Shown: one piece after another, positions 1 through 48,399 of the stretch
How the letters are laid out: every line of letters starts with the position of its first letter
Position numbering within the stretch: position 1 is the stretch's first letter
The notes under the pieces: model-generated
The model's input: the letters and a program-made list of their open reading frames with translations, nothing else
The model's database searches: none
Told to the model about the DNA's origin: nothing
Translations under genes and position numbers: made by a program
Assembly: GCF_001447785.1 (NCBI RefSeq)
Contig: NW_015165858.1
Span: 434,001 to 498,000, forward strand
Length of the DNA stretch: 64,000 nucleotides
Origin: Gekko japonicus
Lineage: Eukaryota
Reading direction: 5' to 3'

Positions 1-2623
1 GGATAAGCACGCATCTCATGCTTTACAAATCTCCTAAGCCGATTCTGCTGTGCCTTGGAACACAAAAAAGGGAAGGGGTTTTGCTCAGAAACGGTCTTGG
101 TTAGTTCACTGTATCTGACCTATACAGCAATAACACAGAGATCACTTAAAGCAGCACATACACAGAGACTTACTAAAGGCAAACAAAATAATCTTGCATG
201 CTGTATATATCCACAAAAGCCAGGCTTCTCCAAAACTGCAAGAAAAAAAAAATCCCCTCACAGATTTAACTCTCCAAGTCCAAAGCTACACTGCCAGCCA
301 ATGGCTGGATGAATGCTGTACGCAACAGCAATACTGCCATGTCTCAACTACCCCTAACATGGCTGCCCAGCATTACATAACACACGGAGTGCCACTGAAT
401 GAATGAACATTATTATTTTGTTAGACTGGTTACACACACACTGCCCATCTGCCACGCAAGAGTCGGTATGCCACTCCAGGCAGCGACGAGGTTGCTTAGC
501 AAAAGCAGCAGCAGGCTGAAGACCCAGCATCTTTGGAGGGAAGGCAGTCAAGCATGAAACCCTGGCTCTTTGCTCAGCTATTCCCTTGTTTTCAACATAA
601 TGGGCATTTTTACTGCGAGATTTCTAATTACAGCAAGAAGCTGCTACCCCTCTGGACTCTGCACTGCCCCCCTTGCAATTAAAGGATACCTTGGTAGAAC
701 TGTTTGCTATGGAAGGTAATTAACGCTGTTGTGCTCCTGCTGTTGCCTTTCCCGTTCCATCTGAATCCTATCTAATGGGATCACAGACTGCTAGACTTGG
801 GGCCGTTTCAAATGTGATGGCTTTCCTACATGAACAGAATGTCTGAAAAAAGGAAAGGGGGGGGGGAACCAACCAAAGCAATTTATTGCGAGAGATCCCT
901 GGTTTTGAAATCAATACAGCACATTCGTTTGGCGGCTCCAACTGCTACCTTCACAATAAGAAATAATTGCAAGACGAATTGGCTGTTACTCTACAAAAAG
1001 GAGGCTCACGTTCATTTTCTTAAGGAAAATGAAATCCAAGGGATATTAAGAAATGGAGCTAAAATACAAGTTGGTGCCAAACAAGTTATCCAGTTCAGTG
1101 AAAGAATAAACAAATCCAGCTGAGATCAGTTCCAAGATTCCTGTGTATTCTTTACACTCATCCCAGCTGGTGCAGAATCTCAGCAGTCAGAACACTCATT
1201 TCTACTAGACATATATGTATCGTAATTATATACAGAAAACTGGATCCAAAGAACAGAACTTTTTAGGTCCTGATGAAATCCTACCGCTGCCCCCTGGAAG
1301 AGGGAGTACAGATGGCCAAGTCACTGAAGGGGCTTTTGGTGGGATGAGAGAGACCTAGAACAGCTGGGGTTGACAGACTGCAAATGGGCAACAACAGGGG
1401 ATCGTTGCCAGTGGACCACCCTGTGACCCCGATGTCCTTCATTCTGACCCCTACTTGGAATGCTGGGGTGAGCATGTGACACTGGAGGACAGGTCCTCAT
1501 CCATAATAGGAAAAGGGTTCGAGATCAGCCAAGGCCAACAAAGCAGGAGAGAGTGAAGCCTGACTGGACATGGCAGAGGGAGTGGGAAGAAGACTATTCT
1601 GACAGCTCAGAGGGTCCTGGGCAAACCTGGAGCTCCTAGCAAGGACATGCAGTAATGGTGAGCCCTCTGGCAAGAAAAGCCCAAAAAATGGTAGGTAGAG
1701 AAAGAGGTGGACAGGAATACCAAGAACTGCTCACAGGGCAGGGGGAATTATCCCCCTCGGAGGGCTTCCTGGACAAAAGCCTGCAAGAGGGAAGGATAAG
1801 CAGCAGCAGCATGAGTGCCTGTTGCCACTGCAAACAAAAAGTCTGTTAACACTGTGGCAGGATCAGCACAGTCTGTAAGTTTATGATGGACACCTCCTGT
1901 CTCAGATGGGCCCGTAGAACATCACCAACGGAACACATCCTTCCTGTCTCCTCCTATCTTCTGCATACAGCCCCCCCCCCCAAGCCAACAAGAAAGGCTG
2001 CTAGTGAGGTTTCAGGGGACCACTGGGAACAGCATGGGCTGTAGCTTCAGGATAGAAAAATCCATCAAAGTTGTACAAGTCCAAGTGCCATGCGCTGCAG
2101 AGGGGCATCACGGGATCCAGTTCAAACTTCCCATGAACGCACTGTTGTGCAAAAAGGTACTTTCTGCTGAAGTCAATAGAAAAATTCCCACTGATTTTAA
2201 TGCCACTGGGTTGAGTGCCCGGGCACAGCTTGCACTTCTCAGGTCCTTTGTGTATATTGGAATCTAAAGCTGTCAAGCACGACTCTTCCTTAACTATACA
2301 GGTCTGTGCAATTACACAGCAACGTGGTAAACCATAGTAATGAATGGCAGTGTAATGACTAGAACAATGTCATCCAAACCCATCTATCTTTCCTCAGCAA
2401 ACAGAACGTTCTTTAAAGCAGCAAGCCAGAAGAATAGGGCTGTTCAAATGTGCCGGCATGTGTTTCATCCATCTTATATAAACTTCCTAGAATATTTTCT
2501 CAGGCATTTGGTTTTCATCAAGTGTTATTTAAAAATCAAGAGATGTCTCCCCACCCCCAACCCCCAACATTCAGTAACAGCTAAAGCTCTCTTACCTTTT
2601 GCACCCAAACAGCATGAACGGCA

Positions 2624-17593: not shown

Positions 17594-17884
17594 AGAAGAA
17601 TAGAAGAGAAGAGACTGGATTTATACCCCGCCCTTCACCACCCAAGGGAATCTCAGAGCAGCTTACAAGCTCCTTTCCCTTCCCCTCCCCAGAACAGACA
17701 CCCTGTGAGGTAGGTGGGGCTGGGAGAGCTCTGACAGAAACTGCTCTTTTTTTCAAGAACAGCTGTGCCAGAACTATGGCTTGCCCAAGGTCATCCAGGA
17801 GGTGCCTGTGAAGGAGTGGTGAATCAAACCTGGTTCTCCCAGATTATAGTCCACGCACTTAACCACTACACCAAACTGGCTCTC
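17594..17884 (-). mobile_element. tRNA-derived SINE (Squam3-like)
   Basis: Full-length similarity to the 3645 copy. Confidence 0.85.
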
Positions 17885-18539: not shown

Positions 18540-18676
18540 CCGTGTTTCCCCGAAAATAAGACACTGTCATATATTTATTTTTTCTCAAGAAGACACACTA
18601 GGGCTTATACCACAAATGCATAGAAATCCTGCTGGGGCTTATTTTTGGGGTAGGTCTTATTTTCGGGGAAACAGGG
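18540..18676. mobile_element. 137-bp Tc1/mariner-superfamily (Tc2/pogo-like) MITE
   Basis: 23-bp TIR CCGTGTTTCCCCGAAAATAAGAC, TA TSD; near-identical inverted copy at 53137-53273. Confidence 0.85.
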
Positions 18677-19519
18677 TATATGTGTCTCACCGATTTCCAA
18701 TGATGCTCCCTACCAGCTGCAGCTCTCCCTGTGCCACGCTGCAGGCTATTTTGAAGGATCTCTGAACCCCCAAGAGTTTTTCCCCCCCCAAAGGGAAATT
18801 GCTGTGGGCACACAGAAAGCGATGAGTGGTAGTTTGTTCCAAGCAGATCTGATCCTTCTTCACTGTACTACACATAAGGAGCTTGTGAAATCTCTTTAAA
18901 ATGAAAGTAGCATGACAAAAACCAGCAGGCTTTCCTCTGTCACACAGCAACACTCTACCATCATCTGAATCATTTTAAAAAGATATTTTCTTTAAAGGAT
19001 GGCTACCACTCATTGGTGGTGGGACTGTGGGGGGGGGGGTTTTGAGGGCAGCTGCAACAAGGACATATTTAATCAAACACAGAATTCGTTTTTCTGAAAT
19101 CTAGTTCACTGGTGGTGGGAATTCCCAGGGATTATATGTTGAAGTGGCAAAAACTATTTCTTCTCAGCAATCTCTTTAATCCATGACATGTGGATAGTGA
19201 AAGGATATTATCCCAGCAGAACAAGCCATGGATAGAAGTGGTAACTTTGCTAAATCAGTGGCTAGTGCGAGTATCGTTCTAAAGAGAAAGGGAGTGGGGA
19301 AGAAAGTCACCTCTAGTCCCAAGAAGTCTGAAGGCAAGCAGAGCAAGACTACTAGAAAAGTCAACAGATCTATATTCAAGCACTGCCTGGAACACAGGCT
19401 GCTGGGAAGCTAGAAGTAGGCCAATCCAAACTCTTCCAAGGAAGGGAAAGATGATCATCATTATCATCACAACTAACTTTTTTGCCTCAGTAAACCCTAA
19501 GTTGACAAACTATTAAAGG

Positions 19520-19748
19520 AGTAGAAAAGAGCAGGAGTCCAGTAGCAACTTAAAGACTAACAAAATTTGTGGCAGCGAACGAGCTTTCATGGGTCACTGT
19601 TCACTTCCTCAAATACTGAATATTCAGACACTGAATGTCAATTCATGAGTCACTGCTCTCTTCTTCAGATATTGAAGTCTTGCTCTTTTCTACTGCTCTT
19701 GCTATTTTCTACTGCTACAGACAGACTAACACGGCTACCCATCTTGAT
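19520..19748. mobile_element. PLE fold-back remnant (second subfamily) with two decayed hammerhead motifs (-)
   Basis: Homologous to the 8331 copy; ends ACAGACTAACACGGCTACCCATCTTGA. Confidence 0.65.
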
Positions 19749-19864
19749 CGATTCTCCTAGTGAAGGAGAAAAACCTAAATTTAAAATAAAGATTACAGTG
19801 CAGTTATGCTGGATAGAGAGGTGTTTTCCCCTATTATTAGATGGATGGTTAGGAGCTTTCCTCT

Positions 19865-19889
19865 CCCCCCCCCCCCCCCCCCCCCCCCC
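19865..19889. repeat. Poly-C run (25 nt); poly-G run (20 nt) at 49132-49151
   Basis: Direct reading. Confidence 0.9.
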
Positions 19890-21337
19890 GCCACTGCTGA
19901 AGTTAAATTCACTGTTTAATTTATTCACTTTACTTACACGATTGTGGATCAACATTTGCAACACTATCTTCTGTGAAAGATGCCCTATTCCTAGCTGGAA
20001 TGGTGGGATGCGGCAATTACTTCCCTTTGGCCCCTTCCCACCTTATCTAATGCAAACACACACATGTTTCTACCTACTCAGCACTGCTTATTTTAGAAAA
20101 AGTAACCACTGGAAAGTTTTTAGTTTATTTGCTTCTCTCAACGTGGTCTACCAAGTAGAAACAAGGCAGAAGACAAGGCCCAAATGAACCCCCCACCAAT
20201 GGATGATTTGAACTATTTGCCTCTTACAGAGTTTGAGATCTCAACAGTGGCAGATTATAGACACAAATGTAAGTATTTCTCCAAATTTGCCTGGGGACTA
20301 TAGCATTGTGGCTTAGCTTTCATATTGTACTGGTTCATCTTTTCAGAGGTTGAATGGCACAATAAGCATATATGCACCACATGAGGAAAAACAGCCACAT
20401 TTTGTGTCCATTTCAGGTCACAAAAAGTGCATTGAGGGAGTCCAACCTAATGCAACATTTCCAAACTGAATCAGAGGCTATGGGTGCCTACTGTTTAAAA
20501 GCTGGAAAACTCCATTCATGGAATATTCAGCATCATATGGCACTTGGGGGGGAGCTGCTGCTGCAGCCCTGATTTAGCTACCCCCCCCCCAACAAAGATG
20601 GTAAAAATCAGAGAGACAGGATTGCTACCTGCTCATAATCTATAGGAAGAAGAGCAGACCACTGAGGCTCTGGAGAATGACAAGGTGCCAGGAGCAATAT
20701 TTTCCCCAAGACTTCCATCGAGACACTTACCTGCAGGGGCAAGCTTCAGGTATTTTGTCACCTCAAATAAAGAACACCCATCACCTCCAGGGTCCATGTG
20801 GCCTCTAGCTTGGTCCAAACCAAGCCCTTGCAGCATTGCTAGTCGTCCCTTGTGCTGCCAGCAGCTAGCAGCTAGCAGCAAGAAGAACCCCCTGTGGTCC
20901 ATTGGCAGTCGCCTCCCTGTGCCAACCCCAAGCAGTTGCTTCAATGGTCTGGACAGAGAACCTGCTCATCAGTTATAAAATGTTCCAAGGGGGCATCCCC
21001 TTAACTTTCCTAGTGGCAATTTAATCTGCAGTTTTCAAACCAGTGATATAGCTTTTGACAGGACAGGCAGAGAGAGAGAGAGAAATTAAATGAATGGTGG
21101 TCATGCACTTACTTGGCAGAAATTAAGGAGCTGCTCTCAGAATGTGACCGGGATAGGAGCAAAGCTCGCTCAAAGGGATAGGCCTCTACAACTATGGACA
21201 CAATGGAGGAGGGTCCAAAACACACAAATGTATCACTTTCTTCCTCCAAATTTAAAATTATTTAAATTTATGCAAACCATACAATGACAGCACATTTTTT
21301 TAAAGATGTAAAAGCAAGAACAGCCCTATTAACCCAG

Positions 21338-21540
21338 ACTAGCCTGATCCCATCAGAGCCTGGAAGCTAAGCAAGGTCAGTACTTGGATGGGAGATCACT
21401 GAGGAAAACCAGAGCTGCTCTGCAGAGGAAGGAAATGGCAAACTGCCTCTGCCCAGCTCTTGCCCTTGGAAACCCCATAAGGTGGGACTTTGCGGGGTCA
21501 CCATGAGTAGTTTGTAACTCAACAGCATGCTTTACCTTCA
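21338..21540 (+). mobile_element. 5S rRNA-derived SINE (SINE3; 5S-Sauria-like)
   Basis: 5S internal promoter boxes AGCTAAGCAAGG and AGTACTTGGATGGGAGA, then an RTE/Sauria-like 3' part GAGGAAGGAAATGGCAAAC...GGGGTCACCATGAGT. Confidence 0.7.
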
Positions 21541-22075
21541 AAAGCAAGAAGTTAAGAATGCTCTAGAAAATTAACTACTGGTAATAAATCTTATGAAGAT
21601 TAAAAAGCCTGAATTAAAAGCCTTAAGAACAGCAAACACAGATTTGTAAATATGTCACAGAAACACACCTGTAAAGCAAGAGAGAACACCAATTATACAT
21701 TCTTGCTCCCACTGTTAGTGCCAGTCATCCATAAACTGTGTAATATTACATAAGTAAGTAGAAGAGACTAAAGAGAGAAAAGTATGCTAAAATGGAAAAG
21801 AAGCAATTAAGTATGATACTTAAACCCATTCACTCATTTTTCTTATTTTTTTTCCATTAAAGCAAACTATACCCATAACATTCAATCCAGTGGAAAGCAC
21901 CTCCTCTTTAGAAGGGGGCATGTGCCCAACCTGCCACAGAAAACTGTTCTTTGCCAAGCTTAACAAGGATTTAAAGGCAATCATCACAGTGGGGGGGGGA
22001 GAGCAGGTTTTTCTTTATTAACTTCTCTTGCTTCCCTGAATCCACCTCTCTGTTCAACCTTGCATGGAAAGAATA

Positions 22076-22976
22076 TCTCCTTATATATAATTCTGTTTTG
22101 GTCATGGACTCTCCTGAACATTCCACATGCTCCCAAATCAGTTCGCTTCCTGATCTGTCACTCAGAAGCTGCCCCTATCCACTGGCTGCGTTGCCTGAGT
22201 CTCGCCTCCAATATTCTAAACAGTTTGCTGTTCCTCTCCCCTCAATAGCCAGCCGGAACACAGAGGTCATTTGCATATGCGGCCTGATTGGCCTGTGCCT
22301 CTAACATGCTAAACAATTTGTTGTTGCGAGTCACTGAATGTGTCCTGAGGTAAAATACATATCCCAATTTTCCCTTAAACGGTCATTGAAGTTGCCAAAA
22401 TACATATCCCAATCTTCCCTTAAACTGTCACTGGAGTTGCCAATCTCCCTGTAGGGCCTGGATATCTCCCAGAAATCACCGTGTTCCCCAGCCACAACAT
22501 ATCAATTGGGCAATGGACTCTATGGAATTATACCCTGCTGAGGTCCATCCGCACCCCAAACCCTGCCCTCCCCAGGCTCTACCCCTCAAATCTACAGGTA
22601 TTTCCCAACCCAGAGTTGGCAATCCTGTAACTGGCTATGGAACCACTTTCCAGACCCTTGGAACCCAGAAGACATGGCATAGGAGGAGGTGCTTTTCTAC
22701 CTTAGCTGCCACTACATAACCCCAAATCAACGTAAGTCAGGGATGGAGGGAACCATACCTGTTACCATGAGGCTGTCCTCCCATGCTACCCACTTGGGGC
22801 AGCAAAATGACTTGAGACAGCCCTGCCTTATAGCTAAGCAGAAGGAAATAAACATGGCTTGCCTGCCTCTATTTTCCCCTTCCCTCTGCCACCCCACCAT
22901 CCACAGTCAGGACACTCACCTGGAGCTTCCTTCTAGAGCTCGTTGTATTTCTTCCTACAACGAACCTTACTCCTAG
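22076..22976 (+). mobile_element. Non-autonomous Helitron
   Basis: A|TCTCCTTATATATAA start; hairpin TCGTTGTA(22940-47)/TACAACGA(22956-63) 9 nt before CTAG|T. Confidence 0.8.
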
Positions 22977-23785
22977 TACATTAATATAACCAAACACATG
23001 TTTTCTATTTGGTGTATAAGTGTAATACACATACCACCATGGACTCCTTGGAGGAAAAGCAGAATAAAAATGTACTAGACGGTATGCACATGCCACTGTA
23101 TTTTCTCTTTATGTTTTATATCTCCTGGTGCAGGTCACTGTAATACTTGTCCACAAGGCCTGAAGCATGGATGTATCCAGCAATAAAGCCAGCACATTAG
23201 CCCCACTTAAGCTTCTGGTGTACGGGCTGGTCTCTTGTAATGTTAGAAACGGTTCACCAAGATTGTTAACAGCTGAAGAATGGTTAGGGAATTCAACTAC
23301 TGAGTCAGCACAGCTGCTTTGTAGGGAGGTAGCAAGTTGAGCTTGTCTTCTCTATCCAAAGCTCGGTTTTTAATTTTTTTTCTGTTCAAACCACACAGGA
23401 GGGGAAATGGATTTGGCAGGAAGGGGAGAGGCAAAGCTGCTGTAGTGGCGGAGGGACTCTCCTAGGTTCATCCCCAGCAACACAGAACATATTTGCTTTG
23501 CTTTCACTCTGTGGTCCCCATTTTAAAATGGCTCGTATTTGGTTTTGAAACTGAAATTTTAAATATTTAAAAATATTTTAGATCAGAAATCTTACATGTA
23601 TATATGTTCCTGGTGTTTCTGGTGGGATTCCAAGATCTCTAATTTCAACATCTTATTTTCTGGAACTTTAAGTTTGTTTGTTTCTATATAAGCCTGAATC
23701 TTTGCCCCACATATTAGTTGTGGGGAACATTTGCTGTGAATACCTTGAAATCAGGGAGAACTCAAATCACCAACTTTACTTCTTG

Positions 23786-24169
23786 CAAGGTAAAATATTA
23801 TCTGGAAGGATCTCAAGTCTCTTAACTTTGCCAAAACAGGCCAACAAGCCCAATACCTTTTTTTTGAGAACCTTAGCACCAAATAATTGAAATTATGAGT
23901 GCTCATCCATCAAAAAACACTTTGTGGAGGGGGGAATGATCACATCAAAAGCTGTCTGGGGATTTTAGTAATTAACCCAAGGTAAAATATTATCTGGAAG
24001 GATCTCAAGTCTCTTAACTTTGCCAAAACAGGCCAACAAGCCCAATACCTTTTTTTTGAGAACCTTAGCACCAAATAATTGAAATTATGAGTGCTCATCC
24101 ATCAAAAAACACTTTGTGGAGGGTGGAATGATCACATCAAAAGCTGTCTGTGGATTTTAGTAATTAACC
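23786..24169. repeat. Tandem duplication, 2 x 192 bp
   Basis: Units 23786-23977 and 23978-24169 differ at 2 positions. Confidence 0.95.
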
Positions 24170-26476
24170 GTTAATTGCTCTTTTACATACCATCCTCAAA
24201 TCCCTAAGCAATGTCTCACGCCTGCTTCCACCATCAACAATAAAACCATGTCTTCCAATTACAGCAGTATGGAAAATCTGTGAAGCAGGACTGTGATGGT
24301 ATAATCTTTTTAAACTGTAGTACCATTTTTAACAAATAAACTGAAGAATAGAACCAAAATGCAAGACTGTTAAACATTTCTGGGACTTCAAAACTTCCTA
24401 TGTAAGCTAATCTTCAAAGCCAAGCTTGATTCTGCTAAACAGACCAATAGAAGGTTTCTTGCCCAGAATAAACTACATCAGTCACCACTGGTACATCATA
24501 GTTTTATCCACACGTACTCCCAGTTTGTCCTGGATCAAAAAGGCTGCATTTAACGGTTTCACAGATTTACAACCATATTGAAAAGTCTGAGTACAGAACT
24601 CTGGCGACTGTACTTGTGCTTTTCCTCAATCCTGTATGTTGGTCCCCAAAGACCATATTCAGTCCAGCCCATTGTTCTAGCTTGTTCAATAACAAGGAAG
24701 AATGCAATAGAAGAATAGGATAACTGGGCAATAATTCCTTGTGTTACTTTTACAGAACACAGGAACTACAGTGTTCATTTCTCATACCTTATAAACCTTG
24801 CTAAAGCATTCATAGATGGGGGGTGAAGCAGAAACAGGCAAAACAGTTAATTCTTGAGCGGATATTCTTCAAAAAGATCTTGGGATATCTCCCCCAAGGG
24901 CCTTGTTACACTGAAACCACTGAACTGATCTTCAGACTCTGGAAACTGAATCTGATGACTATGGTGTACTGTACGGTCCAGGCCACTTCTGAAAACTTGT
25001 TCGAAACAGGCTTCCTATGCCTGTTTCCTATCTGAATTTCCAGCCCTGTTTTGTATGTGTAAGTACCATTAGCCAAATTTTTGTGTGGGATCTCTTTCCA
25101 ACTCTCAGCTAGCCACAACAATCTGAAATGCCAGAGTTTCTTCTGCTCTTCTTTTCTAATACACATTTATATTCGTGTTGTTATTATCTTATTATCTGAC
25201 TCAGTGTTTCTGGCCTGTCTACATAATTCTGGCATGAGTCAAGACCTGAATTCTCAAGCAAATTCTGAAAGTCTCATCTCAATTTCTTAATTTGAAGCCA
25301 GCCAGTCTGCTAATAAATAAACATATTGCAATCCTCAAATGCATAATGGTCAGTATAATTTCTGTAAATGAGCTTTTGTTCTATTTATAACTTACATCCA
25401 AACAAAATCAAGTTGCATTAAGCCTAATGAGTATAGATCCCCCCCCCAAGCTACAAATAACTTGGCTGAGTTAAAAAAGAACAGTCTTTGGCAACGCAGT
25501 CAGAGAAGGAGACTGAGCAGAGAACAATCATAAGGCATAACTTCATCTTTTAGTCATTGTGCATTTACACAAGTGAGCTTTTACCAAACATTTCAAAAAT
25601 CCCCCTTTAGCTTCAACTGAGGGCTCGGCAACAGCAGCGTGCTGTCTTCAGAGAAAACAGTTCAAGGGAGAATACCCAAAGGGTGGGATGGGGGCTCAGT
25701 GGGTGTTACCCAGCCAAACATTTCTGGTGATTTTCTCACCTGATCCCTCCTTCAACAGTCCCAAATGGCCACCTTCACGCTGTTCTCCTGAGGGATCCTG
25801 ATTCGCCAGGAACAGTATTTCATAAGGCGTTGCAGGCGGGGGGGGGGGGGGGGAGACAAGAAAGTGCTCTGCAGACAGAATGCTCAGTTGCATTCAAGAC
25901 ACTGATTTAGAAGCTCACATCCAGCCCAATACCTTGACCTCTTTCGGAATAGTACAACAGCCTGCCCAGTTTCATTCGCTTTCCTTCAATGAGGAACTAT
26001 TCCAATTCAGCCACGGGAAATACGTAGAGAGTAAACTCAGTTTCACAAAATAAGGCAGAAGCCTGCCCCTTTACTGAATATTTCAAAAGGCCTGTTCCTT
26101 CCCCACATGCCCAATGTTCCGTCTTTCCAATAACGATAATATGACTCTGACTGTGGCTCTGAAACCTATATTAACAATTTCAGATTGGATGGTACTTAGA
26201 TGCACAAGCCAGGGAGGACAAGCACATATTCCCTTCCATTTTATTTTAGGCATCAACACAAATTTTCATAACCGCTTCCCCATGCCACTACAGCCCACAC
26301 ATACAAAGGTGTGAGCGCTGTTTCCTTCCCTGTTAATACCACAAATATGTGGGTAGGGCTGACTGCACCCTCCTCTTCTGCTACCATGTGACAGTTCTCC
26401 CATGGATCCAGCGCTTGGAGGGAAAAACGGGAAGACAACTGTTCATGGCCTGCCTGGACTGACCCAACTGGTATTT

Positions 26477-26691
26477 CCAGGTGGGCAGCCATATTGGTCT
26501 GTAGTAATAGAAGAAAGTTAGAGTCCGGTGGCACCTTTAAGACCCACAAAGTTTGGTCAAGGTATGAGCTTTCAGGAGCACACACACTTCTTCAGACACA
26601 ATGAAATGAAATTATGTCTGAAGAAGTGTGCGGCACCTGAAAGCTTATACCTTGAATAAAACTTTGTGGGTCTTAAAGGTGCCACTGGACT
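26477..26691. mobile_element. PLE fold-back remnant with hammerhead cores on both strands
   Basis: Long inverted arms; perfect TSD CCAACTGGTATTT (26464-76, 26692-704). Confidence 0.75.
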
Positions 26692-27615
26692 CCAACTGGT
26701 ATTTGAATGACTTTGGGAGCACTATTTACAGATTTCACTCCTAATAAAGAAATGACAAGCAACAAAAGCAATAGGCCTGAAACACAGCTACCATAAAGAA
26801 ACAGGCTGAAGTCAGTCAAGAAACAGGTAAAGACTTCTAGTCTCTGAAAACGGGTGTTTCCCCAAGCAGCGGTAGCACCAAAACAAAGTGGAAGGGGACT
26901 GTAGAGGTATCAACCAAACTAGAATAGGGGTCTGGTGGTACCTAGCTTTATCATTGCCATAGTGGATGTGCCAGTCCTGGTGACCCTGCTAGTCCTTCCG
27001 CTGGTTCCCAAAGTGGGCAATACCACCCCCTGGGGGGTGCTGGAACGATCCAGGTGCAGATCCACAAACTGTATCTTTTTGTCCACTTCTTGAAGGTAGA
27101 TTTCCAGGGGGGTGCTGAGTAATTTTTTTTCTGAAAAGGGGGTGGTAGGCCGAATAAGTTTGGGAACCTCTGCCTAACCACAAATCATGTGAGGATTGTC
27201 ATGTGTGGACTGCAAATACTGGGCATACCAATTCAGCACACCCAGCACTCACAAAAGTCTCTGACTGGAAGAATACTTTAAAGGGGGCAAAACACAGGCT
27301 AGATCATCTTCAGAGATCTTGAAAGCATCAAACAGATTGTGTGGATTTCTCATTTGGAGAAATGATTAAGACCAGTTTTGCTTTTTAGCTTGGTTTCTCT
27401 ACATGAGTCAGGCAACAGTCAGACTCTTCTTGCATTTATACTGAGTCACTTTCCTAGAAGGGGGAGGGGGGGATTTCATGTAAATTTGATAGCTGGGAAA
27501 ATTAAGCCAGTTATTCATACAATAGAATGAACAAATAAGATGCCGGATTTCAGGCCAACATTTAAAACATACTAGATGGCATACTGCTTCCATGAACCCT
27601 CACTCTCAATTATTT

Positions 27616-27845
27616 CAGGTGGGTAGGCGTGTTGGTCTGAAGCAGCAGGACAAAGTTTGAGTCCAGTGGCACCTTTAAAACCAACAAAGCTTTATTCAAG
27701 GTATAAGCTTTTATGTGCAAGCTCCCCCCCCTTCCTATATGTAATTCTGTTTTACTGTATCTGAAGTGTTCTTGCACACAAAAGCTTATTCCTTGAATAA
27801 AATTTTATTGGTCTTAAAGGTGCCACTGGACTCAAACTTTGTTCT
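27616..27845. mobile_element. PLE fold-back remnant
   Basis: Inverted arms; TSD TCAATTATTT (27606-15, 27846-55). Confidence 0.72.
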
Positions 27846-27909
27846 TCAATTATTTAGTTACTTAGTTGTTTTATCCAATTTAACAGCTCCAGTACCTATT
27901 TTTATGCCT

Positions 27910-28290
27910 GTGAGAACATCCCCACCAGATCAGACCAAGGGTCCATCTAGTCCAACATTCCGTTTCCCACAGTAGGCAGCTGGACATACTGGGGATGACG
28001 GCCACAGCCTTCCCTTGCAGTTTGCCCTCTGCCAACATCTCTTCAGAGCAATACTCCCTCTGAAAAGGGAGGTTCTATTTAGCAGTCATGTTTAACAGTC
28101 ACTGATGAACCTATTCTCCCATGAATTTGCCTAAATCCCCTTTAAACCATCAAAGCCAGCCATAACTACATCTTGGCCAGAAAATTCCATATATCAATTG
28201 TATACTAAGCGAAGACATACTGCCTTTTATTTGTCCTACCAATTAATTTCTGTGACCCAAAGTTATCTTATATTATGAGAAGGGAAGGGA
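27910..28290 (-). mobile_element. Decayed CR1 3' fragment
   Basis: GATCAGACCAAGGGTCCATCTAGTCC terminus, similar to the 44262 copy. Confidence 0.6.
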
Positions 28291-28444
28291 ATCTGTTTGA
28301 GATCACATGGCAGAGCCACCCATGAATATGTGCAGATATGTAGTTTTTATGATTGCTCCATACCTTAACTTCAACAGCTTTTACTAATATGAAAACAAAG
28401 ATGCCATGCTTCAGTTTCTAGGATAGTTCTCCCACACAACCTAA

Positions 28445-28723
28445 AGAGCCAGTTTGGTGTAGTGGTTAGGTATGTGGACTCCAATCTGGGAGAACCGGGT
28501 TTGATTCCCCACTCCTCCACTTGCACCTGCTGATATGACCTTAGGTCAGTCACAAGCTCTGGCACAGCTGTTCCTGAAAGAGCTGTTTGTGTCAGAGCTC
28601 TCTCAGCCCCACCCACCTCACAGGGTGTCTGTTGTGGGGAGGGGAAGGGAAAGGAGTTTGTAAGCCGCTCTGAGACTCCAAGTGAAGGGCGGGGTATAAA
28701 TCCAATCTCTTCTTCTTCTCTTC
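28445..28723 (+). mobile_element. tRNA-derived SINE (Squam3-like)
   Basis: GAGCCAGTTTGGTGTAGTGG A box, GGTTTGATTCC B box, TCTTCTTCTTC tail. Confidence 0.88.
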
Positions 28724-28999
28724 TAAAATTGATTGTTTCCTCTTATATAAGAAATTCTGGGTCACTTAATTAAATTGGTTGGCACCAGATTCAGCAAGGC
28801 CAAAAGGAAGTACTACAAGATTTGGTGATGGCGACAGATGCTCCTGCAGAAGGATTTTTCATGGAGGACAGATTTATCAGCAGCTATTAGACAGGGGTAG
28901 AAGCATACAGCCAACAAATTAGCTTAGGATAATTCCACAGTAATGTGTTAAATTGCCTCGGGCAACATACACTGAAGGAATTGCAGTACCACATAAGTT

Positions 29000-29780
29000 C
29001 AAGGGTCCCCAACCTTTTTGAGCCTGTGGGTACCTTTGGAATTCTGACACAGAGTGGTGGGTACAACCACAAAATGGCTGTGGCAGGAGGTAGAGCCAAC
29101 CACAAGATGTCAGGGAGTGAGGTTATGCATAACTCTAACAGTAACTTCAACCCAGATCCAGGTGGGCAGCCGTGTCACAGTTTATTACTCTTAGAAGGAT
29201 ACTTCTACACATCTATCTCCTATTTTGACATATTTATTACTTCACTGTTCCCCCCAAAATCCAAATAAATGGTGACCATATGAACTTAGCTTATTATTGC
29301 TATTTAGTCTTTGCATATGTCAAAACATCTTCATTAAGTTGTATGCTAATTTGCTGTTCACCTATGTAGAACTGTTAATTTACATTTCAATGTGTCTGAG
29401 GAAGTGTGCATGCACACTAAAGCTCATACCTTGAATAAACTTTTGTTGGCCATAAAGGTGCCACTAGACTCAAAATTTGTTCAGTAACTTCAACATTTCA
29501 GGTAGAAGCTCTGCTTAATAGGATGCCTTTTTAAATAAACATATTTCAAAATATTTTCTTGCTTATCTTCAGTCACGCAGTAAAGATATTTCTGCTAGGG
29601 TGGCAACTGCTGCTAAAGATTTTTTTTAATCTGCATAGCCCATCGGAGCTTCCATGGTCAGTCAGAAGCCCTGCTTGGAAAAATCCCCACCCAACCCTAG
29701 CCACTCTCTAAAAGCAGTTGGCGGGCACCAGGAAAGATGTTGGCAAGTGTCACATTGCTCAGGGGTACCATGCTGATATA
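29000..29780. mobile_element. hAT (Charlie-like) MITE, same family as 12287, interrupted by a PLE
   Basis: Starts CAAGGGTCCCCAACCTTTTTGAGCC; internal similarity to 12287-12961; right end decayed. Confidence 0.6.
29152..29481 (+). mobile_element. PLE remnant nested inside a hAT MITE
   Basis: Perfect TSD CAGTAACTTCAAC (29139-51, 29482-94); hammerhead motif 29392-29429 with G12>T. Confidence 0.72.
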
Positions 29781-30551
29781 GTTTGTCTACCTCTCAAAGA
29801 TCTCTTCCCACTCCTCAAAATGGCACATAACGCTCCTCCTTCCTGTCCTTAGGGTACGTACAAGGTTTTAATTCCAGCCAAAAACTTTCCCTAACCTCAC
29901 AGGAGCTGGACTGCAAATGAACAGTTCTGCTTGCTGAAGAACTGGAGTAATTATTAACGTTCCATGCCATCCCATCAGCTCAGCCAAACTACACCTGAGG
30001 CTTTACCTCCTCAAAACACAATACTGTGCAGATAGCTAAAAGGCACCTCTGCCTTCAGGCACTGGGTTCTGAGAGACAAATGACAGGCACAGAGGATCCC
30101 CGTAAGACCCCGTTACATGAGCTTTCTATATGCTACTGGCTGGTAATTACTGGAACTATCTGCCAAATATCCAGCAAATGTATGATTTAAAAATAAACCT
30201 CATGCAGCTGTTTAAGACTACTGAAAAGTTTTTAAAAGCTTGTCCTCATCACTCTGTTGTTTGCCTTGGAGTTGTTTTGCTTTAGCCGCTTTACTCTTTT
30301 GCACTAAGTCTGGAAACAATGAGAAATGCATGCATGACAAAACAGGTTTTGGAAATTTTCTGAATATATCTCTGAAAATGATACTTCACACAAACCTCTA
30401 TTTTAACAACACGCATGATGCCCAATATAGCATTTTCCACTGAAAATGGGCAAACTTATTTTAGTATCAGTTTATTATAAATATTTGAACCATAACACTT
30501 AAAAAAATATATCTGCAAGCCAGTGAGCTACGTCAGCTTATTTCCATGGTG

Positions 30552-30716
30552 GGGAGAGGTTGTGGCTCAGTGGTCAAGCATCTACAGAAGGTCCCAGGCT
30601 CAAATCCAGGTATCAGATAGTAGGTGAAGTGCCTGAGAGCCTATACAGCCCATGTTGGTCACAGTAGACCACAGTGACCTTGACAGATCCGTAGTCTGAA
30701 TATAAGGCAGCTTTGC
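30552..30716 (+). mobile_element. Decayed tRNA-head SINE with CR1-like tail
   Basis: TGGCTCAGTGG A box, degenerate B box, 3' part resembling the CR1 tails at 44262 and 27910. Confidence 0.5.
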
Positions 30717-31789
30717 CTATTCCAGAAACATCATCATTTTACTTATAAAATGCCTATGGGTGACACGCTATAAAAGAGAAAAAAGGAAATCGTTAAGATC
30801 ACAGCCCACAAAAACAAAAATAGTTCTACCTGGCACCAGAATTCTGCTTTCTGTAATCATTCACGGAGATCATGAAAATAATTAAAATTTTAACATCTGA
30901 CTATCAGGCAGCCCTTATGACATAGAGCAGACTCATCCTACCAAATAATCAGGAAGTCATTCAACAGATTCCTTTCTCATCTAAAACAACCTAAGTACCC
31001 TTCTCTGCCCCTGTCTGTTATGAACTGTTCCAGGTTATCAGTGCTAACGATACATAGAAGGTTCACTGCTAAATTAGGACCTCCGCCACCATTTTACAGT
31101 CAACACTGATTAGTGAGATCAGGCAATACTGAAAACAGACATTCACATTGCTCGTGCTGTACAGGGAGCTGCAATAGCAAATTCACACATATGGGCGTTC
31201 ACTCCTAGCAATCCACAACCACCAGTTCTCTGAACACCAGAAAAAGAAGCATGTACATGAACAGTGTTAGGTAGGAAAAACTCACATCACACCATAAAAG
31301 ATCTATTTTGTAAAATGGTAGGAAGCCCAGTATTAAATACATCAATAATTCTCAAAATGTGTTCCAGAAACCTCTGGGGTCAGCAAGAAGTCTTATAACG
31401 GTGGAGATGGAGAAGCTACCCTCAAAGATGCCTTGCCTGACTGTTAACCTTCCTTTGAAATTTGCAGTTTCAGAGGAGCTTTATGCTGCACTCTAGGGTA
31501 CGCTAATTTCACATGAAGCGACAACAGCGACAGTGTACAGGCCTGATCCATAGCACTCTGAGTGTATACCGCAGGATCATGGTCTTCAACTTTTCTAAAC
31601 CTAAGAGCTACCTTTAGTTCTTGATGACTCTGCAAGCATGTGACATGGTCATGTGATGGGAAGAGGGAGGGCCACTGAGACCTTGACTGGCTGGGGTCAA
31701 GGCACCACAATTAGAAGCACAGGTTGCAGACCAAGAGATCCAGAGACAGAAAATACAAGCTGAGTATCACGAAGTATACCATGAGTAAA

Positions 31790-32072
31790 GAACAAAGAAT
31801 CACAATGGAAAGGTCCTCTTTGTCTGTCCCATCAATCAAAGAAAGCTCATCTGGTGAGTATATGAGAGAGGGCCTTTTCAGTGGCAGCCCCGTGATTATG
31901 GAATCACCTCCCCAGGGAAGTGCACCTGGCCTCCTCCATTCCTGATCCTTAGGAGGCAGCTGAAGAGTTTTATTCATAAGGTATTTGATCAGTTCTTCTT
32001 CCTACTGGCAGTTTTAAATTGCTGATTTTAATTAGTGGTTGTAATGTATTTTATGGTAAATAAATAAATAAA
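31790..32072 (+). mobile_element. Decayed L2 3' fragment
   Basis: RAFSVAAP*LWNHLP motif and (TAAA)n tail. Confidence 0.6.
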
Positions 32073-33812
32073 ATGGAGGTGGCCTCGCCCCCTCACATCC
32101 TGCTGCTCCTGCTTTCTGTGTGTGCCCAGAAAGGCAGGAAGTGTGATGATCTTGCTCTCCACGCATGTGTACTTGGCAGCATATCTTTCCATAAAGAAAG
32201 GGAGGGGGGAAGGCAGAACAACAGTGTCTTATGGCCCAGCATGGACTCTGTGACCCACAGGCTGAAGACTCTGTGACCCACAGACCTAGAACACTTCCTG
32301 GAACCATCTGTAAACACAGGGGCTCTACTGCAGAAATACAGGGATTTCTCAGCAGATGCTGTACTTTCAAACCTAGAAAGTTTGCAAGTCATTGTACTAT
32401 GTCTATAAATATCACCTTGTTTCTTATTCGCACAACAAAAAAATTCTCTGCACAAACAAAAAACCAGCACACCAAGGAGGAGGCTAGGCTAAACCTGTAT
32501 CTGCACGTTAGACTTTTATCTCACCCAGGTCTAATAAATCAAGTCTTCATGCAAAATAATTTCAACAAAGTACTTTGCCACATTAGGCACCGTCCATAAG
32601 CACATTGAGTCAAATGATTTATATCCTAGTTTCGAAGCATACATTAGCTCACACAATTCACATCATTGTGTGCTTCAGCAAAGGAACCCTGGCATTACAC
32701 TACACATCTTTGGATATATTCCACGTATACAGATTTCCACTTCCCATGGTGGCCACCTGTACATTCACACCACGTGATGAATGCAAACAGTGTATAGAAG
32801 GCCACGTTAGTGTACATCTTCATTCAAATGCACCTTTGGCGTACAACCTCTGACAAAAAAAAAAGCAGCATTACCCAAAGGCCAAGAAATGAAGTTGGGC
32901 CACACCTGCAATGTTGGAAAAACCCATTCCTATCAGTTGTTTCGGACTTCCATGACGGTGGCAGCACTTTTCAGACTCCACAGTCACACTGATTGCTGCT
33001 TACTGTATTCTCAGATTGCCCAGCACATACATTATACTCGACCAAGTGGTCCATATCTGAGCGTGGGAGGAGCTAATCTCTTGGACAAAAGAGGAGCCAT
33101 GTGTGAACAGCATTTCTTAATGTATCTTACTTGACATATCCTGATAGACAGCCAAGACACACATACTGTCATGTCTAATATTTACTTTGGATTTTTCAGC
33201 TAGGTTCACACTCTCAATATAGTCTGGTCTCGCACCTAATACTAAATAGATGTAAACAATATTCCAAACAAACATGCATTCTGCTTTCTTCGGAACATCT
33301 GTTAACATTTGAGCTCCTATACTCCTTTTCCCATAGCTTGCTTCTTCCAACTACAGCTACAGTTGTTAAATTATCTATTGGAGAGGGGACAACAGTATTC
33401 TACTCCTTCCCTTATTGGGCAACGTAGATGAGCTCTACTTAAAGGCCATGGGTATAATACACTGACGCTTTCATTATACACAAGGAAATAAAGAGTTTGC
33501 AATCCAGGAGCCAGTCAGTCAGCTGTAATTACACTATTGTCTCACACTATCATCTCAGCAATTAAAGAACACACACATTCATCAAAAGTCTTTTCAATAA
33601 AAGTGATTCACGTGTTTAGCTGAAAATCAGTGAAAGAGGAGACTGAATGATTTATTTGTACAATGAGTTAACAAGCTCCTTGACAAGGAGCTTTTTCCTA
33701 GCCACAGGTGATGGGAGGGCCAAAGGACCATTCCCATATGCTAAGTTGAACTAAGTGCAAAACAAAGTCTGAGGCCAGTGGCACCTTTAAGACTAACAAA
33801 GTTCTATTCAAG

Positions 33813-33850
33813 GGACAAGCTTTCGTGTCCATCCACACTTCTTCAGATAC
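33813..33850 (-). ncRNA. Minimal type I hammerhead ribozyme motif (PLE-type), core intact
   Basis: GUAU-CUGAAGA-A-GUGU(GGAUGG)ACAC-GAAA-GC-UU/GUCC: 4-bp stem II, palindromic AGCU stem III, imperfect stem I. Confidence 0.65.
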
Positions 33851-33919
33851 TGTATCTGAAGCAACAGAACAAAGTTAGAGTCCAGTGGCACCTTTAAGAC
33901 CAACAAAGTTATATTCAAG

Positions 33920-33957
33920 GTATAAGATTTCGAGTGCACGCACACTTCTTCAGATAC
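33920..33957 (-). ncRNA. Minimal type I hammerhead ribozyme motif (PLE-type), core intact
   Basis: GUAU-CUGAAGA-A-GUGUGC(GU)GCACUC-GAAA-UC-UU/AUAC: perfect 4-bp stem I, one mismatch in stem II. Confidence 0.6.
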
Positions 33958-34450
33958 AATGAAATGGAAGTTACCAGTCCATACATATAGGTAGAGGGTG
34001 AACAGTAAATTAGCATACAACATAATGAAGATGTTTAACAGATTCAAGGGCCAAACAGGAATAACAAGTTTAGTGTATATGGTTATCATTTGTTTGGGCT
34101 TAATTCCAGAGAAAAACATAGTTTAGGAAATAAATATATCAAAATTGGAGTTTGATGGGCTGATGCACTCTTCTCCTGTTTGGTCCTTGGTCTTAAAGGT
34201 ACCACTGAACTCAAACTTTGTTTTGCTGCTTCAGACCAACATGGCTACCCACCTGAATCTAGTAAGTGATAAGGCACATTCAAAACATTTCATCACTTAA
34301 ACTCAAGACATTTTAACACTATAATGAAAAGGGTGCATATGTTTCATCTGTATATTTGTTAGAAGAAAGAATCCATTGTTTGATATTTCTATAAAGCATT
34401 GCTAATATTAATTGCAACTCAAACAGCTGCACCAATTCGAAAGAGAGGTT

Positions 34451-34725
34451 AAGAAGAAGAAGAAGAGAAGAAGAGATTGGATTTATACCCCGCCCTTCAC
34501 TTGGAGTCTCAGAGCGGCTTACAAACTCCTTTCCCTTCCCCACAACAGACACCCTGTGAGGTGGGTGGGGCTGAGAGAACTCTGACACAAACTGCTCTTT
34601 TTCAAGGACAGCTGTGCTGGAGCTTGTGACTGACCCAAGGTCACATCAGCAGGTGCAAGTGGAGGAGTGGGGAATCAAACCCGGTTAGAGTCCGCACACT
34701 TAACCACTACACCAAACTGGCTCTC
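34451..34725 (-). mobile_element. tRNA-derived SINE (Squam3-like)
   Basis: Near-identical to the 3645 copy, with a ~10-bp deletion between the A and B boxes. Confidence 0.85.
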
Positions 34726-35559
34726 TTAAACAGCTACCATATGAGAAAGTACATTTTGCCACTGTGTCTGACAAGAAGCAACAACTGATCTCAGCTCCCT
34801 GGGGCCTGCAAAGTGGGAATGTGCTGCATACCCACATACATAGGTCAAAAAGTAATGTGTTAAGTACAACAAATTGTAAAGGTCATGGATAGCAGGCTTG
34901 GCCAAAGGAGACCCAGATTGTGGTCATACAGCTGATTTCAGTGGAGATTTATTTGCAAGTAAGTTTGCTTGTAACTCAGATAATGATGTTCTCAGCCTAC
35001 AGATATTGTGAGAAGGAATTACAAAGCAAATTGCAGACTAAATAAGGAGTCAACACTGTGGAAAAGGAAGACAAATATTAAATGACAGTAGTTATACATG
35101 CATCACAGGATGTTTTTAGACATAGATTTGTTGTACATTTTTAAAGCTTATCCTTCATCACTTAGTATATTTCTACACATGTTCCGGACAAAAACAATGG
35201 GCTTTCTCTTTATGGACAATGTTTCTAGAGCAATGTTTCTCCAAGCATGCACATGCACACCACTCTACAGAAAACAAGCAATTTTAAAAAGCATTGAACA
35301 AAAGCATCTTTCAGTATCATCACGAGACTCCTCCTGAAACCTTCCTGAAACAGCAAGGCCTGTTCAAAATGGATGAACATCTTACTGTCTTAACCTACAG
35401 CTAGTCGTAGTAGTAGTACATACACAATCTAGTTCGGGCGGAAAATGCAGCACACGATGACGATTCATTCCAACGACTGTTTGGGTTTGCGAGGACCACA
35501 GCAGCTAGCAGACCATCCAACCCTCCAAAAAACCCAAACCCCATAAGAGTCAGCTTGAT

Positions 35560-36515
35560 ACCCCTTCCCAGGCTCCTCCGACCTCGCTAAAAGCCGAGGG
35601 TTGCTCCTGTCCCTGAAAAACGGATGCCCTCAAGTTTCTGCATCGCACAAAAAAAAACAGCGCCTCGACAACACCGCGAGCAGAAAAGCCACCCTGTCAG
35701 AGACTCCCTCTTCTGTTGTCATCCGCGGCACCCGCGTTTCCAGCAAAGGCCGTCCTGATGACACCGCAGCACCTGGATCGCCCCTTTCCCCCACACGCAC
35801 AGAAATGGAGCCACCCGGACCCGAGGGAACCGAAGACGTGCCGTCGCCGCCGTCCCCAGCCTCCCGCGGGGACAGCTCCAGGCTAAACAGGAAAGGCCGC
35901 CTCTCCTGTCAGTCCCAGCCCAGGGTGGGAGACCTCTGCCGGTCACCTGCCCTCTCCCCCCGCCCCGGCCGCCGCTCGGGGTTCGCCTGCGGGTCTGCAT
36001 ACCGCAGAGAGCCGACACTTCCCCCGCCGCGGGCGGCAAGCCGGAGGGTTGCCTGGGACCCAGCGAGAGGGGGGGAGGAGGAGGAGGGGGGAGAGCCCTT
36101 TTGCAAGCGAGCTGGCTTACCTCGCGGCGGCTGTGGGGTCCAGGTGAGCCCCGCTCTGCTTCACCGAGCCCTGCAGACCATGCCGGGCAGAGGCCGACCT
36201 GCCCTCCCGCCTTCGGCCCGGGGAGCCACTGCAGCCCCTCCCTCCCGCTGCGGCTGCTGCTCCTGCTGCTCCCCACACCCCAAAGCAGCTCCCACAGCCG
36301 CCGCAGCCCCGGCACCCGAACGCGCAGCCACTCCGCCGGCTATGACGCCACAAACCGCTCCGGCTCCTCCTCCGGCTCCCGCGCTTCGGCGGCTCGGCCC
36401 CCTGCAGGACAGCTGCCGCCACTGCAGGCCCCTCCCCAGCCCCAATCGCGCCGATGGGACTTCGAGGGAAAGGTGCGTCCACGGGCCAGATGCAGAAGGG
36501 CGCGGCTCAGCCCTC
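35560..36515 (-). promoter_or_regulatory. CpG-island promoter with non-coding first exon (~36400 to 36121) of a leftward-transcribed gene, candidate INPP4A by synteny
   Basis: Very GC/CpG-rich; strong minus-strand donor CGAG|GTAAGC at 36121/36120; CRE-like TGACGCCA 36343-36350; no recognisable coding sequence. Confidence 0.7.
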
Positions 36516-36825
36516 CAAATGGGGACCATATATATCCAAGTTTGTTCCTGTTTGGTCCTTGAATCTGTTCAACATCTTCATTGTGCTGTATACTAACTTA
36601 GTGCTCACCTATAGGTATAGAATGGGAACTTCCATTTCGTTGTATCTGAAGAAGTAAGGGCGCGGCTCAGCCCTCCAAATGGGGACCATATATATCCAAG
36701 TTTGTTGTTCCTGTTTGGTCCTTGAATCTGTTCAACATCTTCATTGTGCTGTATGCTAATTTAGTGCTCACCCTCTACCTATAGGTATAGAATGGGAAAT
36801 TCCATTTCGTTGTATCTGAAGAAGT
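36496..36825. repeat. Tandem duplication, 160 + 170 bp
   Basis: Units start AAGGGCGCGGCTCAGCC at 36496 and 36656. Confidence 0.92.
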
Positions 36826-36938
36826 GTGCTTGGACAGGAACGCTTATATACCTTGAATACAACCTTGTTGGTCTTAAAGGTGTCACTGGACTCGGACTTC
36901 ATTCTGCTGCTTCAGACCAACACGGCTACCCACCTGAA
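36524..36938 (+). mobile_element. PLE pseudo-LTR fragment, partly tandem-duplicated, abutting the CpG island
   Basis: Homologous (reverse) to 33866-34085; ends CAGACCAACACGGCTACCCACCTGAA. Confidence 0.72.
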
Positions 36939-38085
36939 CAATAGTATCCCTATCGTCTTTCTTGCGCATCTTCCCTTAGATAGGGTGGGGAAATGATTTG
37001 TCACACTATACCTCACTTATTCAGGGTGGGCTCTGAATTCACAAGGAGTTCCTCAGCTCTGTTATTTCCTTGCACACATAGTTGCAAGCATTTTTATCAC
37101 TTCTTCCCCATCCTCTAGTTAGAAGGGCATTGAAAAATAGAAATCAAGTTTCAGATAAGAACTCTTCTTCACAAACGCAGTACTGTTAACACATGTCACA
37201 CTTGGCCTTCTCTTGGGATGAGTTAGCTTCTCCTTTACACCTAGGTGGGCGCAGGCAGATGATTTGGTGATTCTTTTTGTACTTACCTGTGAGTCTATGT
37301 TAAGGCCCGGAAAGAAACTGAAAGCCTTCTTCAGATTAAAAGATTGACAGTGAAATCCTAAACACAAGTACAGTCTAAAGCCATTGAAGTCAATGTACTT
37401 AGAAGGGTGTAACTTAGCTTTAAAAAGTTTCCAGCACTGATGCCATGAAACAGTAATACCTCATACTCCATTAAAAACAAACAAGCAGAAATTCTTAACA
37501 CGGATGTTCTGCAGTATCTGCCACCAAGAAAAACATTTTCAACTTTATTCCCTTCTTGCAAAGGTCAAAGGATCAAGGCTCCATCACAATCTCATGTATA
37601 GAATAGGAATGTGAGAAGTTGTTTGGCAAGGTACTTCCACTGAGACAATGCGTGTTAAGAATTACACATTTATAGATCCATCACTAACAAAATTGGCAAC
37701 CAATTTGTTTTGAAAGAATTATAATCCTTTTGTTTTTTATCATTTTGATCTCATTGAGCAAAGGCTTGCCTTCGGGGAAATCTTTAGGTAAATCAATGCA
37801 ATATGAACGATACTTCAGTCCAAGTAGGAGACTGGCCTATATAGATGCAAACAAAAAATCCTTAACAATTCTGTGCTGTTATTTTATTAAAACATACCCC
37901 TTTCTTATTTCTAATAAGTAAGAATACAAACCAGCCATGCAAGGCTGCAGTCTGGTACATTAATCTGGAAGCAAAGCTGTACTGAGCACAATGGAATTTA
38001 CAAGTAAAAAGGCATAAACATTTACAAGTAAACACATATTTACTGGAAGGAAGTCCAGTTGAACTCAATGTGAATTACATTTGAA

Positions 38086-47707: not shown

Positions 47708-48399
47708 CTGTCATAAAAATACAGTAAAGTAAGCAGCCAACATATTTATTCAGCAGGCAAGGAAATTATTTCACAAGCATGCTCTTTTCAGAAAGGCTGT
47801 ATTTGATACCATAGTCTCTGAAAGAAAAACAGTTTATAAATGCTACAGAGTAAGCACCAGGCAAACAGACAAGACAGAAAAGTATTTACTTCCAGTTGTA
47901 AAAAATAATTTCTAATGTCAACTCTTAATCACATCCCCTAGTGAAATAATATCTTATTATATGCATGCCAGAAAAGCATTTTAAGGTTGACCGTTTTGTT
48001 ACTCTAGTGTACGGTGAGAGCCTTCTTATTGCGATGTTGCAAAATGAAGACTTCATCCCGTGCTCTGCAATTAGCCCTCTTATAGCTTGCTCCCCATGTT
48101 CACTTACTCAGAATGAAGCTGCAATTGAACACACACTTGTTCGGGGGCAAGCCCTACTAGAGTCCATAGGAATTATATTTTAGCTCGCAATCAGGATATG
48201 GGCCTATAATCCTAAATGCAACTACCAATTATTAATTCCCAGGTAGTTTAACGTGAAAATTCTGAGTACACGACCATACCCAAAAACGTTCCACTGAGTT
48301 CAATGGGATTCACTCCCAAGTATCCTAACATCACAGGCACAGGAAACCTGCCACGGTCAAGATTTAGCACCCCCTCCCATAGGCGTGTTGTCTAAATGA

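Follow-up and report, generated by a model that had tools for sequence, protein, structure and literature searches.

A decayed pair of minimal hammerhead motifs in the end of a Neptune-type Penelope-like element, likely within INPP4A intron 1 of Gekko japonicus

Introduction

What becomes of a transposon-borne ribozyme when two copies of it come to lie head to tail in a host intron, on the transcribed strand? The question is raised by a 64,000-nucleotide stretch of Gekko japonicus DNA (henceforth the window), in which an initial annotation recognized two hammerhead motifs in a Penelope-like remnant and suggested that they might form an active intramolecular dimer, cleave the host pre-mRNA or release a retrozyme-like unit of ~107 nt. 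Minimal hammerhead ribozymes (min-HHRs) are described from the pseudo-LTRs (pLTRs) of metazoan Penelope-like elements (PLEs), turtle and snakes included (PMC4209133). Both the hammerheads of reptile PLEs and tandem units derived from such elements are already published, and a preprint supplement may list a gecko; the value of the pair considered here is as a record of a PLE insertion. We regard it as very probable that the two motifs belong to the decayed end of a Neptune-type PLE, an end likely duplicated by template switching in one insertion and likely situated in INPP4A intron 1. Cleavage is not predicted, since a hairpin at the junction would bury one core and mutations break the stems.

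Two minimal hammerheads with intact cores and damaged stems

The two full-core motifs were recovered ~107 nt apart on the minus strand, at 33957-33920 (copy 1) and 33850-33813 (copy 2), in agreement with the initial annotation (Table 1), and TRF assigns the pair a period of 107, with 1.8 copies and 86% matches. Copy 1 is laid out as GUAU CUGAAGA A (GUGUGC GU GCACUC) GAAA UC UU AUAC and copy 2 as GUAU CUGAAGA A (GUGUGG AU GGACAC) GAAA GC UU GUCC. Both possess the C3UGANGA9 / G12AAA / U16.1-H17 core, an extra base after A9 and the G10.1-C11.1 pair; the extra A, the one-pair stem III and an AGCU in one motif are as previously described, the AGCU being that of copy 2. The stem mismatches that had been remarked upon are likewise present in both: copy 1 has a U.U mismatch at 10.2/11.2 in stem II and a G15.2>U change giving AUCU, with loss of the AGCU palindrome, and in copy 2 stem I contains a U.C mismatch as well as a U.G wobble, and stem II two G.G mismatches. 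The pair does not combine a palindromic 15.1-16.1 in both partners with intact stems. Both copies retain G12, a CpG site that 6 of 25 family copies have lost.

Table 1. Features of the insertion and of the host transcript, in window coordinates
Feature	Position	Strand	Details
Minimal type I hammerhead, copy 1	33920..33957	-	core intact; C3 = 33953; predicted cut after 33924
Minimal type I hammerhead, copy 2	33813..33850	-	core and AGCU intact; C3 = 33846; predicted cut after 33817
First forward pseudo-LTR segment, family about -200 to +99, holding copy 1	33855..34165	-	90% identical to L003
Fold-back junction, 9-bp hairpin	33841..33861	-	sequence and pair probabilities
Second forward segment, family -4 to +89, holding copy 2	33758..33850	-	9/94 changes versus family majority
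Inverted 5'-truncated copy, family +51 to +125, with ~35-nt PLE tail	34187..34261	+	family comparison
15-nt inverted scrap of upstream pseudo-LTR at the inversion joint	34174..34188	+	by eye against family copies
Candidate 6-bp target-site duplication, left	33752..33757	.	hexamer repeated at 34263-34268
Candidate 6-bp target-site duplication, right	34263..34268	.	hexamer repeated at 33752-33757
Non-coding first exon, CpG island, ending at GT donor (36121/36120)	36121..36333	-	contig X1 record 8

The assignment of both motifs to the minimal type I hammerheads stands, given an architecture that is that of the published min-HHRs and stems that covary across sister families. With the min-HHRs described in PMC4209133, the gecko family shares the core, the extra nucleotide after A9, G10.1-C11.1, a short stem I and the palindromic 15.1-16.1, and it occurs, like them, as thousands of mostly single remnants per genome; it differs from those described there in having A at position 7, and the pair differs further in its mismatched stems and in one core that is predicted to be buried. 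An Rfam scan of 30000-38000 at E<=10 matched zero hammerhead models and gave 9 weak unrelated rows; the minimal form escapes these models.

At the level of the genome, a strict pattern for the U7 variant finds 1,880 exact matches and its reversed control 0, which places the motif beyond chance. Among the first 50 of these matches, stem II pair 2 (10.2) is U-A in 14, G-U in 14 and A-U in 11, stem II pair 4 (10.4) is A-U in 29 and U-A in 10, and stem I pair 3 is U-A in 27 and C-G in 9; 131 of 200 pairs are Watson-Crick, against 102+/-5 when shuffled and 33-68 when slid. These counts reveal covariation between families and are given no p-value, as the rows represent a few related families. As far as sequence comparison goes, the family-level motif is a real hammerhead, whose stems I and II appear to have been kept by compensatory change. 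The same first 50 matches (L232-L281) include at least four further U7 hammerhead families with different stems I and II.

The family is abundant. In 651 kb, made up of the window, 198 kb adjoining it and 389 kb of arbitrarily placed stretches, we found 53 family insertions and 31 hammerhead-spanning segments, 13 of the latter in the arbitrarily placed stretches, which by extrapolation gives the genome roughly 80,000-120,000 (about 10^5) remnants that contain a hammerhead. A strict intactness filter passed 2 of the 31. Other insertions of the same or sister PLEs in the window lie at 2621-2837, 13434-13568, 26478-26697, 27614-27845, 29195-29493, 8331-8499 and 19513-19616, several of them as head-to-head inverted pairs; the hammerhead at 26595 (-) keeps a full core and lies in sense in the same intron as the studied pair.

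Affinities with Neptune-type Penelope-like elements

When the family is extended upstream, its sequence runs into the end of a GIY-YIG frame, and 25 of the 29 loci picked by a query of the endonuclease end and pLTR alone continue through the hammerhead. Still further upstream of the pLTR are reverse transcriptase (RT) pieces and a CX4CxxC linker, contiguous with the pLTR in relatives. Nine pieces of such relatives, all broken, were compared with Pfam: five match RVT_1 or GIY-YIG and four match neither. RVT_1 (E 1.3e-8) and GIY-YIG (E 0.0013, below the cut-off) were detected upstream of L207, GIY-YIG in L201 (E 2e-5) and, below the cut-off, in L199, and RVT_1 in L212 (E 0.002); the CX4CxxC motif is present in translations of L199, L201, L202, L207 and L219. 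The arrangement of an RT followed by a C-terminal GIY-YIG upstream of the pLTR is present in relatives and absent from the window remnant itself. The Penelope-like origin first proposed for the repeat is thus upheld by pLTR relatives that carry the RT, linker and GIY-YIG. A CX2-5CxxC linker between the RT and endonuclease is described as a mark of Neptune and Nematis elements (PMC8557442), and, by its sequence affinities, the repeat is the pLTR end of a Neptune-type PLE, the Neptune label being taken from the Cys linker.

The shape of the insertion is also that of a PLE. These elements are described as inserting in tandem or inverted, 5'-truncated form, with only one end bearing a tail, of 30-40 bp (PMC8557442), and the window element is likewise 5'-truncated, tandem/inverted and tailed at one end. 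Counting C3 of the hammerhead as +1, with the stem I GUAU at -4 to -1, the 68 3' ends of the family fall at +84..100 (31), +113..131 (26) and +70..83 (11), with 0 at +101..112.

The Poseidon element PAc of Anolis carolinensis is, comparably, a lizard PLE with a pLTR hammerhead, a tail and two adjacent internal RT start sites (PMC11167929). Unlike PAc as described there, the gecko family has a Neptune/Nematis-type Cys linker, and what survives in the window is 504 bp of non-coding remnant, known from sequence only. The PAc ORF starts in stem II (PMC11167929); in the gecko family an in-frame ATG in loop II starts a reading frame that continues through the tail (L003:1541 onward; L004:1491-1781) and, by analogy with PAc, may be the Neptune ORF start. 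Searching by title and the start of the abstract, we found no literature on this gecko family; Dfam or Repbase may already catalogue it.

Anatomy of the insertion and a template-switch origin of the pair

On the minus strand, the remnant consists of the tail-bearing inverted arm, the 15-nt inverted scrap, the segment from -200 to +99, a TACA and the segment from -4 to +89. The first forward segment has 19/299 changes relative to the family majority; the second ends at the tail-less class of 3' ends and has no derived change in common with the first. The hexamer that recurs on the two flanks is suggestive, and only suggestive, of a target-site duplication.

The join between the two forward segments is a perfect fold-back. 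Its 25-nt junction has one exact match in the 2.49 Gb genome, namely this locus, and, with one mismatch allowed, nine rows at eight places. Among the seven other places, L022, L024, L027/028 and L029 are head-to-head fold-backs at -4/-5; at L015 the same join links units of two subtypes in direct tandem, and the join of L283 is similar. Of 40 scored candidates that were checked, two have a similar join, with different units. Across the family, a 5' boundary with perfect fold-back recurs at -4/-5, where hammerhead stem I begins. The cause of this boundary could be an RT stall, a transcription start or a splice acceptor; as to the last, an AG precedes the -4 boundary in two subfamilies only.

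We infer from these joins that template switching has recurred at the stem I start, aided by complementarity between the core UCUGAAG and CUUCAGA at +93..99. In such a scenario, cDNA synthesis would start at the two usual 3' ends of the family, +89 and about +124; one cDNA would reach the start of stem I, fold back on itself and jump to the +99 region of the template through the UCUGAAG/CUUCAGA match. The two classes of 3' ends agree both with a PLE tail on one side only and with the Anolis element, for which two adjacent RT start sites and priming of both DNA strands are described (PMC11167929). Given the two fixed 3' ends (+89 and about +124) and the recurrent fold-back boundary at stem I, tandems of 90-107 nt can arise without cleavage. 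Hence, tandem hammerheads should not all be called active retrozymes.

Tandem arrays and the retrozyme alternative

The 107-nt repeat could instead be the monomer of a non-LTR retrozyme that spreads via self-cleaved, circularised RNA, an origin that we consider highly improbable. Under a loose definition, two consecutive hammerhead-bearing units, the pair would qualify (bioRxiv 10.64898/2026.07.22.740005). Another 14 loci, chosen for examination on account of two or more same-strand units, each contain 2-6 units arranged head to tail; unit length there is about 90-107 nt, in most cases 90-97 nt, and most units belong to a sister subtype. Moreover, the described non-LTR retrozymes are likewise head-to-tail hammerhead units related to the PLE pLTR, with unit lengths averaging 176 bp in reptiles and ranging over 51-972 bp in all taxa (bioRxiv 10.64898/2026.07.22.740005; PMC7229834). 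They differ from the window pair in that the latter has 1.8 units, a junction that is not propagated and a minimal instead of a canonical hammerhead.

Several observations stand against a retrozyme. The exact junction occurs once in the genome, so the 107-nt unit of the window is not a propagating one and has not dispersed as a family; the two loci with a similar join are composed of different units; and the first unit extends 200 nt up into ordinary pLTR. Leaving aside the -5 kcal/mol filter of the preprint, what the window holds is 1.8 units with their cores present and their stems broken. The release of a ~107-nt retrozyme-like unit that had been envisaged is therefore not borne out, in view of the unique junction, the broken stems and the neutral decay. 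The other arrays point the same way: G12 is kept in 19 of 51 units over the 14 loci, and at L129 a dead core is common to all three units, which suggests that they were amplified without cleavage. Among the Xenopus dimers described, one of nine cleaved (bioRxiv 10.64898/2026.07.22.740005).

The arrays at L086, L110, L129, L133, L134, L135, L137, L139, L140, L154 and L158 (contigs C9041, C7347, C10138, C14162, C13990, C6849, C1728, C17515, C12460 and C4598) are retrozyme-like in their head-to-tail order, with units of about 90-97 nt, nearly all of the sister subtype, that run from hammerhead stem I (-4..-2) to an end at +88..92, and some of their linkers recur across contigs. The L110 array is interrupted by one copy of a ~270-bp dispersed repeat that is also present in the window (see below).

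Predicted folding and the prospect of cleavage

With the pair thus read as a template-switch duplication, there remains the question of what its RNA could do. ViennaRNA predicts that the GUAUCUGAAG of copy 2 is paired in the 9-bp junction hairpin (P 0.91-0.93 for eight pairs, 0.72 for the ninth), which joins the end of segment 1 to the 5' strand of stem I and the CUGAAG core of copy 2 and is worth -8.5 kcal/mol on its own. Core 2 is predicted to be unpaired with P=0.04 and the dimer helices to form with P=0.00; the site of copy 1 would be sequestered by the extended stem I of that copy (P about 0.8). When undecayed hammerheads are substituted as a control, core 2 is still buried (unpaired P 0.03); in natural array dimers the second core is unpaired at 0.20-0.81 in 14 of 16 and similarly buried in 2 of 16. 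Taken whole, the 186-nt RNA is no more stably folded than its shuffles (z = -0.46). A forced double hammerhead lies 33.5 kcal/mol above the best fold here and 18.6-39.9 kcal/mol above it in the 16 natural array dimers; this gap was dropped as a test of activity because the natural arrays cover the same range. All these values come from nearest-neighbour folding, which ignores the hammerhead core, tertiary contacts and protein chaperones.

An intramolecular dimer would have a U.C mismatch in its shared stem III and broken stems in each half, and, with its helices at P about 0.00, the active dimer proposed earlier is not predicted to form. Cleavage of the host pre-mRNA, the other outcome suggested for the pair, is similarly not expected under the model, with a predicted hairpin over the core of copy 2, broken stems and neutral decay.

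The pair may still have low residual cleavage activity. In the half-ribozyme made of core 2 and site 1, stem I pairs at all four positions, stem II has 4 bp and stem III has 2. A chaperone or the protein of the element might refold the RNA and let core 2 cut site 1 (33924) in a few pre-mRNAs, without function and with a small effect on INPP4A output. We judge this unlikely. It would accord with the Anolis PLE hammerhead, which is described as cleaving only once its protein was added, the same account finding no RNA-seq ends at the site (PMC11167929), and with the report that slow intronic hammerheads do not block splicing (PMC2995048). However, both the 9-bp junction hairpin and the stem I of copy 1 (P about 0.8) form earlier in transcription and would have to melt, and, since all the ORF-bearing relatives seen are broken, the protein of the element may no longer be made. 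Published PLE min-HHRs are poor cleavers even in intact form: in Schistosoma, the monomer is described as inactive and its dimers as weak (PMC4209133).

A more elaborate version, and in our estimate a very unlikely one, is a switchable ribozyme, wherein the fold-back hairpin would be the off state and a Penelope protein or host chaperone would refold the RNA for core 2 to cut the INPP4A pre-mRNA at 33924. If true, the output of the host gene would be tied to transposon activity, and the pair would be one of many latent intronic cut sites among about 10^5 hammerhead remnants; more generally, a demonstration of cleavage would mean that many latent cut sites exist in gecko introns. In the decayed-insertion reading that we prefer, the hammerhead formerly would have served the transposon RNA, and the pair would now be a passenger of the intron, with which it is transcribed, removed by splicing and degraded.

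Decay of the two copies

The three segments diverge from the family majority by 6.4%, 9.6% and 6.7%, against a family mean of 11% (range 7-24%), and copies 1 and 2 have no derived changes in common. Inside the hammerheads 7 of 76 sites are changed versus 26 of 392 outside (p=0.46, a comparison of low power with 76 sites). All 11 core bases are kept in 11 of 25 family copies, so that two intact cores at one locus are unremarkable. Family-wide, non-CpG core sites are changed in 5.7% versus 8.6% for the flanks (p = 0.13), and the G12 CpG site in 24%. Judged by these comparisons, both hammerhead copies appear to have decayed at the flank, that is, neutral, rate.

The host gene and the case for co-option

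The coding exons of INPP4A lie on the minus strand between window coordinates -27640 (ATG) and -95651, and an exon predicted 61 kb past the window start has 100% identity to a Gekko japonicus protein labelled type I inositol 3,4-bisphosphate 4-phosphatase. A 3,088-nt contig of run X1, which we presume to be RNA, spans 36333-36121 on the minus strand and departs from the window sequence at the GT donor. This exon is likely INPP4A exon 1, 63.8 kb above the ATG, its splicing to the INPP4A exons being inferred. The contig and the exon map together place the pair 2.2 kb downstream of the 36121 donor, in sense orientation, in a long 5'-UTR intron that is likely INPP4A intron 1. The sense orientation within a long first intron had been postulated earlier, and it holds, with the donor backed by the spliced contig and the downstream coding exons being those of INPP4A. 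Pfam and PDB searches with the host exons gave no match.

In three RNA runs and one contig set, depth is near zero over the unique sequence of 17001-35000, and on the repeat it derives mainly from other copies, with 70-78% of the reads there continuing into unlike sequence. None of the five listed pile-ups of read begins or ends falls at 33924 or 33817, in libraries of a type unable to show hammerhead ends.

The position of the pair, on the sense strand 2.2 kb past the first donor, invites comparison with the intronic hammerheads of RECK, CTCL and DTNB (PMC6155905) and the CPEB3 ribozyme (PMC10919898), which are likewise described as sense-strand ribozyme motifs in host introns; amniotes do have conserved intronic hammerheads (PMC6155905). 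That the host has co-opted the pair as a regulatory intronic ribozyme of INPP4A, in the manner of RECK or CPEB3, nevertheless strikes us as extremely improbable. Those ribozymes are described as canonical and as conserved between species, whereas the gecko pair decays like the surrounding repeat, no slower than its flanks, has broken stems and finds no Rfam hammerhead match; it shows neither the Rfam matching nor the purifying selection of a host-conserved hammerhead. Sense-strand remnants are also common in INPP4A: the span examined has four in sense versus five antisense, with no depletion of the sense strand. Our literature searches for INPP4A in combination with a ribozyme returned nothing.

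A few further features of the window may be recorded. A remnant of the same family at 36496-36939 (+), with a 163-bp tandem duplication and a broken hammerhead (C3 36816), immediately adjoins the CpG island and first exon on their upstream side. A second GC-rich stretch (GC 0.54) at 48000-49500, with several overlapping open frames, is possibly another promoter or a repeat. The near-perfect (98-99%) 192-bp tandem duplication at 23786-24169 is either recent or an assembly artefact. The ~270-bp dispersed repeat, which we take to resemble a Sauria SINE, is found at 3647-3928, 17604-17885, 28445-28724, 34460-34726 and 62574-62848 and is abundant in RNA reads.
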